Positions 47,348 through 48,468 of a DNA stretch of 64,000 nt are shown one piece after another. Made by a program: the position numbers and the translations under genes. The notes under the pieces were generated by a model. The model saw only the letters and a program-made list of their open reading frames with translations, did no database searches and had not been told where the DNA came from. The first letter of the stretch is position 1. Every line of letters starts with the position of its first letter. Source of the stretch: Escherichia coli (lineage in GTDB: Bacteria; Pseudomonadota; Gammaproteobacteria; Enterobacterales; Enterobacteriaceae); NCBI RefSeq assembly GCF_002854065.1, contig NZ_CP024147.1; one strand, written 5' to 3'.

Positions 47348-47489
47348 AATCTTTCCTCGCTTAAAAAACAAGACGCCATATCATAGCAGCCAGCCTCTTG
47401 ATACCCAATCTCTTGCTTCTGGAAAAACGCGGTAGGTGATGCTGCCAACTTACTGATTTAGTGTATGATGGTGTTTTTGAGGTGCTCCA

Positions 47490-47765
47490 GTGGCTTCTGT
47501 TTCTATCAGCTGTCCCTCCTGTTCAGCTACTGACGGGGTGGTGCGTAACGGCAAAAGCACTGCCGGACATCAGCGCTATCTCTGCTCTCACTGCCGTAAA
47601 ACATGGCAACTGCAGTTCACTTACACCGCTTCTCAACCCGGTACGCACCAGAAAATCATTGATATGGCCATGAATGGCGTTGGATGCCGGGCAACCGCCC
47701 GCATTATGGGCGTTGGCCTCAACACGATTTTCCGCCATTTAAAAAACTCAGGCCGCAGTCGGTAA
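47490..47765 (+). CDS. insA: IS1 InsA
   Basis: Identical 91-aa InsA ORF; A6C frameshift motif at 47741..47747. Confidence 0.9.
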
Positions 47766-48187
47766 CCTCGCGCATACAGCCGGGCAGTGACGTCATCGTC
47801 TGCGCGGAAATGGACGAACAGTGGGGATACGTCGGGGCTAAATCGCGCCAGCGCTGGCTGTTTTACGCGTATGACAGGCTCCGGAAGACGGTTGTTGCGC
47901 ACGTATTCGGTGAACGCACTATGGCGACGCTGGGGCGTCTTATGAGCCTGCTGTCACCCTTTGACGTGGTGATATGGATGACGGATGGCTGGCCGCTGTA
48001 TGAATCCCGCCTGAAGGGAAAGCTGCACGTAATCAGCAAGCGATATACGCAGCGAATTGAGCGGCATAACCTGAATCTGAGGCAGCACCTGGCACGGCTG
48101 GGACGGAAGTCGCTGTCGTTCTCAAAATCGGTGGAGCTGCATGACAAAGTCATCGGGCATTATCTGAACATAAAACACTATCAATAA
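47684..48187 (+). CDS. insB: IS1 InsB frame
   Basis: Identical 167-aa ORF. Confidence 0.85.
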
Positions 48188-48468
48188 GTTGGAGTCATTA
48201 CCAACGCGGTAATAGAGAAAGAGGTTAATTTCATTTGGCAAAGGGAAGTATCATCAGCAAAATTTTCGCTGTAGAGGTATCGAATTTCCTGACTTTTTTA
48301 CCCTATTTCCCATCCTGATGCGTAATAATCCCAATTTATCACATTGATTTTATCGCCACTCATATTGATACGTATCACTGTCCCTATTCAGAGTCCTGTT
48401 TCGTATCATATCTGTGTTTTTTTAACGTCATCACACTTCCTTCCTCCCCTAACGCTTATCGTCGTTTC

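Follow-up and report, generated by a model that had tools for sequence, protein, structure and literature searches.

Some IS elements are known from the regulation of the genes beside which they lie, for example IS1 and IS5 in the activation of bgl and the IS elements upstream of flhDC. IS1 also promotes adjacent deletions of the type described by Reif and Saedler. The IS1 of E. coli (IS1A/IS1B type) is 768 bp long, is bounded by imperfect terminal inverted repeats of ~23 bp, carries insA and insB' with an A6C frameshift site and makes a 9-bp target duplication, and the element analysed here is like it in these respects.

This element lies in the spacer between actS and xdhA in a 64,000-nucleotide stretch of E. 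coli DNA, which was analysed as a whole and is called the window below. A first-pass annotation had recognised these flanking genes, ygeR (now actS) and xdhA, and had proposed that IS1 might part the sigma-54 promoter of xdhA from its upstream activator sites or impose IS1-derived read-through on ygeR. The element is 100% identical in its DNA to one annotated as IS1B family in E. coli CUWW06, so that its novelty lies in the insertion site alone. Neither the kind of element nor its recent insertion is out of the ordinary, and the insertion itself is a routine polymorphism of a well-known element. The parts worth keeping are the prediction of an enhancer upstream of xdhA and a recurrent pattern of deletions beside actS.

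The IS1 element and its empty site

The complete element occupies 47435-48202 on the plus strand, with GGTGATGCTGCCAACTTACTG as its first and CAATAAGTTGGAGTCATTACC as its last bases. The left terminal inverted repeat (IRL, 47435-47457, plus strand; pair I1 of the repeat tool) and the right one (IRR, 48180-48202, minus strand; from the repeat search) fall within an inverted-repeat pair at the IS1 ends, 47432-47457 and 48180-48205, which the tool scored as imperfect and 77% complementary. On the plus strand, insA (47490-47765) encodes a protein of 91 aa with Zn_ribbon_InsA and HTH_Tnp_IS1 domains, and the overlapping insB' reading frame (47684-48187) encodes a DDE_Tnp_IS1 domain. In the domain search InsA matched PF03811 and PF12759, and InsB' matched PF03400 (E = 2e-78). 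Direct reading of the sequence places an A6C motif at 47741-47747 on the plus strand, given by TTTAAAAAAC at 47738 within the insA/insB' region, and this we take to be the site of the -1 frameshift by which InsA and InsB' are fused.

The 64 kb contain just two copies of the 9-mer AACGCGGTA, one at 47426-47434 and one at 48203-48211, each exactly adjoining an IS1 end; at the empty site of CUWW06 the 9-mer is present as a single copy. Two copies alone are not significant, as 5 of 100 shuffles reach that number; the target duplication is counted as real because of the placement of the 9-mer at both IS1 ends and because of the empty-site test. An IS1 with a target duplication, as first described, is thus borne out, and its original span of 47426-48212 has the right start and ends 1 nt past the duplication (48211). 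The target 9-mer is one base off that of K-12 at 47430 (AACGCGGTA in the window, AACGTGGTA in K-12). This difference is a lineage polymorphism that is also found in relatives with an empty site, and it was not caused by the insertion.

The description of this IS1 as the third in the window also holds, since two further copies lie on the minus strand at 39421-40188 and 40212-40979, and all three are identical (768/768 bases). The other two form a tandem pair (39421-40979) spaced by 23 bp, the first with a 9-bp duplication, GCATAACTT, and the second without one, which suggests an adjacent rearrangement.

Deletion in silico of IS1 and one repeat copy gave a sequence of 800 bp. Two E. coli genomes carry it with 100% identity, and 5320 of 5426 complete E. 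coli genomes match at least 80% of its length. In K-12 the actS-xdhA spacer, with which a comparison had been advised, is 453 bp long, uninterrupted and free of IS1. The junction found in the window, searched for in either orientation, is present in 0 of the 5,426 complete E. coli genomes, and a 40-mer across the left junction had no match among metagenome contigs.

The closest comparison is with CUWW06, an E. coli wastewater isolate from Thailand that was reached through its exact XdhA allele, the ActS protein being far too widespread to point to a lineage. Identity to the window is 99.94-100% across shared segments (13.9 kb with 0 mismatches, 995 bp with 0 and 2.9 kb with 1), with one mismatch in ~19 kb of shared non-IS sequence. 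The IS1 that follows yqeG and the IS2 next to glyU are also present in CUWW06, the IS2 in identical form, but its actS-xdhA site is empty, base-exact. Since so near a relative has an empty site, the insertion between actS and xdhA is very recent and strain-specific. The near-identity to CUWW06 also rules out a Shigella origin, which had been suspected from the absence of the junction in complete E. coli genomes. The presence/absence difference from CUWW06, together with three identical copies in the window, points to recent IS1 mobility, and the lineage of the window is apparently one with active IS1.

Three identical IS1 copies within 9 kb are also a setting prone to assembler error, in which a repeat-induced misplacement of one copy could mimic an insertion. 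Such an artefact is barely credible at this locus, where a perfect 9-bp duplication stands at the exact ends of the element, both flanks are unique sequence and the empty site is base-exact in a near-identical genome. A genuine and recent transposition is the reading followed here.

Other differences from CUWW06 lie further to the left. Segments 40189-42595 and 43191-44911, remnants of the ETT2 secretion-system region, are missing in CUWW06, and in the window the former adjoins an IS1 and the latter an IS2. As judged from the alignment, the two strains appear to differ mainly by IS-associated gains and losses. The IS2 (44912-46242), flanked by ygeQ and glyU, is oriented opposite to the IS2H of K-12 and occupies a different site, IS2H being on the other side of the ygeP-ygeQ segment.

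The actS and xdhA control modules

To the left of IS1, actS (ygeR; 46592-47347, minus strand; from RefSeq annotation of relatives) encodes a LysM/M23 amidase activator of 251 aa with a TTG start. Counted from the first base of this start codon (47347), IS1 begins at a distance of 88 nt, as originally stated. In K-12, the start site of ygeR has been mapped by RACE to 2999918 on the reverse strand, and Reg-Seq found -35 and -10 footprints only, a promoter of class (0,0), which denotes no regulator sites (PMC7567609). Between the actS start codon and IS1, the 87 bp of the window show 2 differences from K-12 and no indel, and the start site therefore maps to 47374. Mapped onto the window, the published start site and footprints (PMC7567609) define a sigma-70 core promoter at 47374-47408 on the minus strand, with the -35 element TTGGGT at 47403-47408, the -10 element TATGAT at 47380-47385 and a G at 47374 as start site. 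The -35 element matches 3 of 6 positions; the sigma-70 scan missed this promoter, and it was placed from the published start site instead.

The IS1 junction falls at -60/-61 from the actS start site, 47434 being the last native base at -60, and both the core promoter and the start site are untouched. From -61 upstream, native actS-side DNA has been replaced by IS1, and a regulator acting there may have escaped detection under the conditions used for Reg-Seq. An Rfam search of the spacer matched glyU alone, with no RNA family within the spacer.

To the right of IS1, the candidate sigma-54 promoter named in the first-pass annotation proved to be real. The -24/-12 promoter of xdhABC, CTGGCGTAAATCTTGCC at 48468-48484 on the plus strand, has the GG-N10-GC spacing of a sigma-54-dependent promoter, and this 17-mer is identical to a K-12 sigma-54 ChIP-seq site 84 bp upstream of xdhA (PMC4591121). 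Between the end of IS1 and the TGG of the -24 element at 48469 there are 266 bp, in agreement with the earlier figure of about 265 bp, and the junction is at ~-293 from the xdhA start site. The -24/-12 element upstream of xdhA is kept in nine genera. The spacer to the right of IS1 is AT-rich (35-41% G+C).

The genes downstream are in good order. xdhA is intact from the K-12 start (48579-50837, plus strand; a longer RefSeq ORF of 765 aa starts at 48540), as is ygeV (isrR; 52242-54020, minus strand), the product of which has PAS, Sigma54_activat (E = 9e-71) and HTH_8 domains. In K-12, ygeV is the only sigma-54 activator gene annotated within the cluster, and xdhABC are members of the YgeV iModulon (PMC10602906). 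All cluster genes in the window, from xdhABC through mocA, have their full K-12 length, which weighs little on function because the insertion is too recent for decay.

A binding site for YgeV was predicted by comparing the regions upstream of xdhA across Enterobacterales. The set comprised Citrobacter, Kluyvera, Klebsiella (two), [Enterobacter] lignolyticus, Yokenella, Morganella and Hafnia, and was found via XdhA orthologues and contig look-ups; an earlier contig profile search with YgeV was swamped by generic AAA+ activators and gave one true orthologue, in Enterobacter sp. Bisph1. All of the regions fetched from these eight other genera keep the -24/-12 element. In E. coli and seven further genera an inverted pair lies at ~-132 and ~-110 from the -24 TGG, with weaker matches in Morganella and shifted positions in Hafnia. 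The dyad has the consensus TATCAyAATGA-N12-TCATwwTGATA and marks a predicted enhancer (upstream activator site, presumably of YgeV) at 48337-48370 on the plus strand, ~-158 to -125 from the xdhA start site. Its distal half-site is TATCACATTGA (48337-48347) and its proximal half-site TCATATTGATA (48360-48370). It lies between IS1 and the xdhA promoter, 134 bp from the IS1 end.

The same motif recurs within the cluster. A weight matrix, built from non-E. coli half-sites only, was scanned over 46 kb of K-12, and its top 7 matches are 111-216 bp upstream of four cluster sigma-54 promoters, those of xdhA, ygfK, ygfT and ygeW. Dyad sites occur at 3000101-3000138, 3005940-3005956, 3015784-3015804 and 3031158-3031174 in K-12, and at 48337-48370 and 54176-54187 in the window; all four xdh-ygf cluster sigma-54 promoters have the dyad 110-220 bp upstream. 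Furthermore, the 12-mer CTCATATTGATA is common, as an exact match, to the xdhA, ygeW and ygfT upstream regions of K-12, and occurs exactly in the window at 48359 and 54176 only. In Enterobacter sp. Bisph1 the motif and the promoter are kept upstream of ygeW. The conserved dyad is a candidate binding site of the activator YgeV (IsrR). A literature search found no published YgeV binding site or footprint, and nothing on the dyad motif or on an IS1 at the actS-xdhA site. The result is a testable prediction of an enhancer sequence for YgeV, common to four sigma-54 promoters and conserved across Enterobacterales.

Nearer the promoter, the cross-genus alignment revealed a second conserved block, TTTTTTAACGTCATCACACTTCC, at 48420-48440 on the plus strand. 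It has the form TTTTTAAC-N3-CATCACAcTTCC (~48420-48440) and is found in eight genera; our guess is that it is a site for IHF or for a second regulator. Farther upstream than the dyad, no conserved sequence was found across the genera compared. The upstream neighbour gene varies, being actS in Citrobacter only and elsewhere mutS, DUF554, another activator or a KDGP aldolase. No more than ~150-160 bp lie between the end of this gene and the -24 TGG in Klebsiella and [Enterobacter] lignolyticus, so that the whole control module fits within that distance.

Expected effect on regulation

The insertion had been proposed to separate upstream activator sites from the sigma-54 promoter, which would weaken or abolish YgeV-dependent activation of xdhABC. 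It is true that promoters of this class need upstream sites and that the one in question is genuine, and, as YgeV sites have so far been predicted from sequence, a distal site is conceivable. However, the dyad (48337-48370) and the second block (~48420-48440) both lie on the promoter side of IS1, so that the enhancer has likely not been separated from its promoter. The native DNA stranded on the far side amounts to 87 bp, with the actS promoter and leader only, and in other genera the module lies behind a different upstream gene, the end of which is 150-160 bp away from the -24 element. No decay is seen in xdhABC or elsewhere in the cluster, an observation of little weight after so recent an insertion. 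Separation of the enhancer is, on these grounds, very improbable. One candidate for such a distal enhancer, a TATCA-N15-TGATA pair on the left side of IS1, was rejected; it coincides with the -10/-35 region of actS and has no counterpart in other genera.

A second way in which IS1 could act is by changing expression directly, either through insAB' read-through, which would give a low, YgeV-independent transcription of xdhABC, or through a hybrid promoter that alters actS. insA and insB' do point toward xdhA, and no terminator-like site was predicted on the plus strand between the insB' stop and xdhA, so that weak transcription from the IS1 promoter could cross the xdhA control region. Moreover, IS1 ends can reportedly supply the -35 element of hybrid promoters, as Prentki and co-workers are said to have described in 1986. 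Against this, IS1 has a weak promoter that InsA represses, the element is strongly polar, and neither junction offers a -10-like sequence. At the left junction, no outward hybrid promoter was found on the minus strand by promoter scan and direct reading; IRL does contain an outward TTGGCA, but the hexamers 16-18 bp beyond it (TTTTCC, TTTCCA and TTCCAG) do not resemble a -10. At the right junction, the hexamer 17 bp beyond TTGGAG in IRR is ATAGAG, again not a -10. The idea of IS1 read-through onto ygeR is not supported by the same evidence, as insA and insB' are on the plus strand and transcribed away from actS, there is no outward hybrid promoter and the actS core promoter is intact. Altered expression by either route is unlikely, if somewhat less so than a severed enhancer.

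The insertion could also alter local nucleoid architecture with no site being cut, through IHF at the IS1 ends, H-NS coating or the uncoupling of supercoiling. As binding sites of IHF, the ends of IS1 could alter how the DNA bends locally; the spacer on its right is AT-rich, and the two divergent promoters are now 777 bp further apart, which could alter supercoiling coupling between them. Nothing in the sequence demands such an effect, however, and the sigma-54 module works in other genera with quite different upstream DNA. We regard this explanation as highly improbable, on much the same footing as the loss of the enhancer and only marginally ahead of it.

The explanation preferred here is that an intact IS1 transposed very recently, by its normal mechanism and with a 9-bp duplication, and landed in the spacer that separates two divergent control modules. 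The actS module is a simple sigma-70 promoter, with the junction at -60/-61 from its start site, and the xdhABC module consists of the predicted enhancer dyad, the second block and the -24/-12 promoter, with the junction at ~-293 and 134 bp outside the dyad. Both modules would stay whole and attached to their own genes, so that a small regulatory effect, or none, is to be expected. By scan and direct reading, no mapped or conserved site is cut by IS1 and no outward promoter arises at its junctions. The insertion is thus probably near-neutral, occupying the gap between two self-contained promoter modules. We infer both that the dyad is the YgeV site and that expression is unchanged, and the near-identical CUWW06 provides a natural empty-site control for an expression test. 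The main consequence is structural, an active recombinogenic element having been placed at the edge of the cluster for anaerobic purine/urate catabolism (xdhA to ygfT).

IS1-bordered deletions near actS and comparison with known systems

In other E. coli, an IS1 lies within ~600 bp of actS in 95 of 5,426 genomes (24 + 71, with the actS flank joined to one or the other IS1 end), these being genome counts not corrected for clonal relatedness. A control anchor at the ygeV-ygeW spacer, searched in one orientation only, gave 8 genomes. Twenty of the 95 loci were examined (L001, L014-L017, L098-L107 and L124-L128), and in all 20 the far IS1 end no longer abuts the xdhA-side spacer; simple insertions numbered 0 of 20. 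In 17 of the 20, IS1 abuts mocA, ygfT, uacT, idi or lysS instead, with the cluster missing, and the 12 of these 17 that were mapped base by base have lost 15-33.5 kb of the purine/urate cluster. The remaining three are larger or different rearrangements, in A23 (next gene yqeJ), VL40 (next gene yghW) and CUVM53 (next to an ISEc1 fragment). Two-piece BLAST matches had been taken as candidate simple IS1 insertions at other offsets, a reading that was dropped once the fetched loci all turned out to be deletions or rearrangements.

The actS-side IS1 end points scatter from -22 to +610 relative to the insertion site in the window. The leftmost is at K-12 2999956 (window 47412), 4-5 bp upstream of the actS -35 element, a position estimated for 11 genomes from their alignment spans and, in one of them, verified by sequence. 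Among the matches listed, no end point was nearer to actS or inside it, a limit that hints at selection for continued expression of actS (or glyU).

Many of the junctions are distinct, and several IS1 variants are involved. There are genomes that have one junction in common but not the other, and some shared left junctions carry different IS1 variants, which points to independent, recurrent events. Taken together, the genome comparisons are evidence that IS1-rich E. coli lineages may repeatedly lose the whole cluster via IS1-bordered deletions anchored beside actS, a pattern of relevance to bacterial urate and purine degradation in the gut. It is possible, though we hold this only tentatively and think it less probable than its opposite, that the window captures a rare first step, in which IS1 lands in the actS-xdhA spacer and then promotes the loss of the ~31-33 kb cluster (xdhA to ygfT/uacT), the actS-proximal edge of which would be a preferred, and perhaps selected, boundary in IS1-rich lineages.

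Several known systems can be set beside this locus. The predicted xdhA control module resembles the NtrC-type enhancer and sigma-54 promoter of glnAp2, where a -24/-12 promoter is likewise combined with paired dyads ~100-160 bp upstream, and as in that architecture the xdhA cluster carries an activator gene (ygeV). In contrast, TATCAyAATGA/TCATwwTGATA is unrelated in sequence to NtrC sites, and YgeV as its binder is a prediction made here. Regulatory insertions of the bgl and flhDC type are like the present one in that an IS element sits in an AT-rich intergenic control region flanked by divergent genes. They act by disrupting a silencer or operator or by supplying a promoter, whereas here no mapped or conserved site is cut, and the case serves as a caution that an IS element may lie in a "control region" and yet leave every control site alone. 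Lastly, adjacent deletion of the Reif and Saedler type resembles what is seen in the 20 of 20 genomes in which IS1 no longer abuts xdhA. Unlike such deletions, the IS1 of the window is a simple insertion with both copies of its target duplication and the full cluster still beside it, and this is the state in which a precursor of the cluster deletions would be expected to appear.
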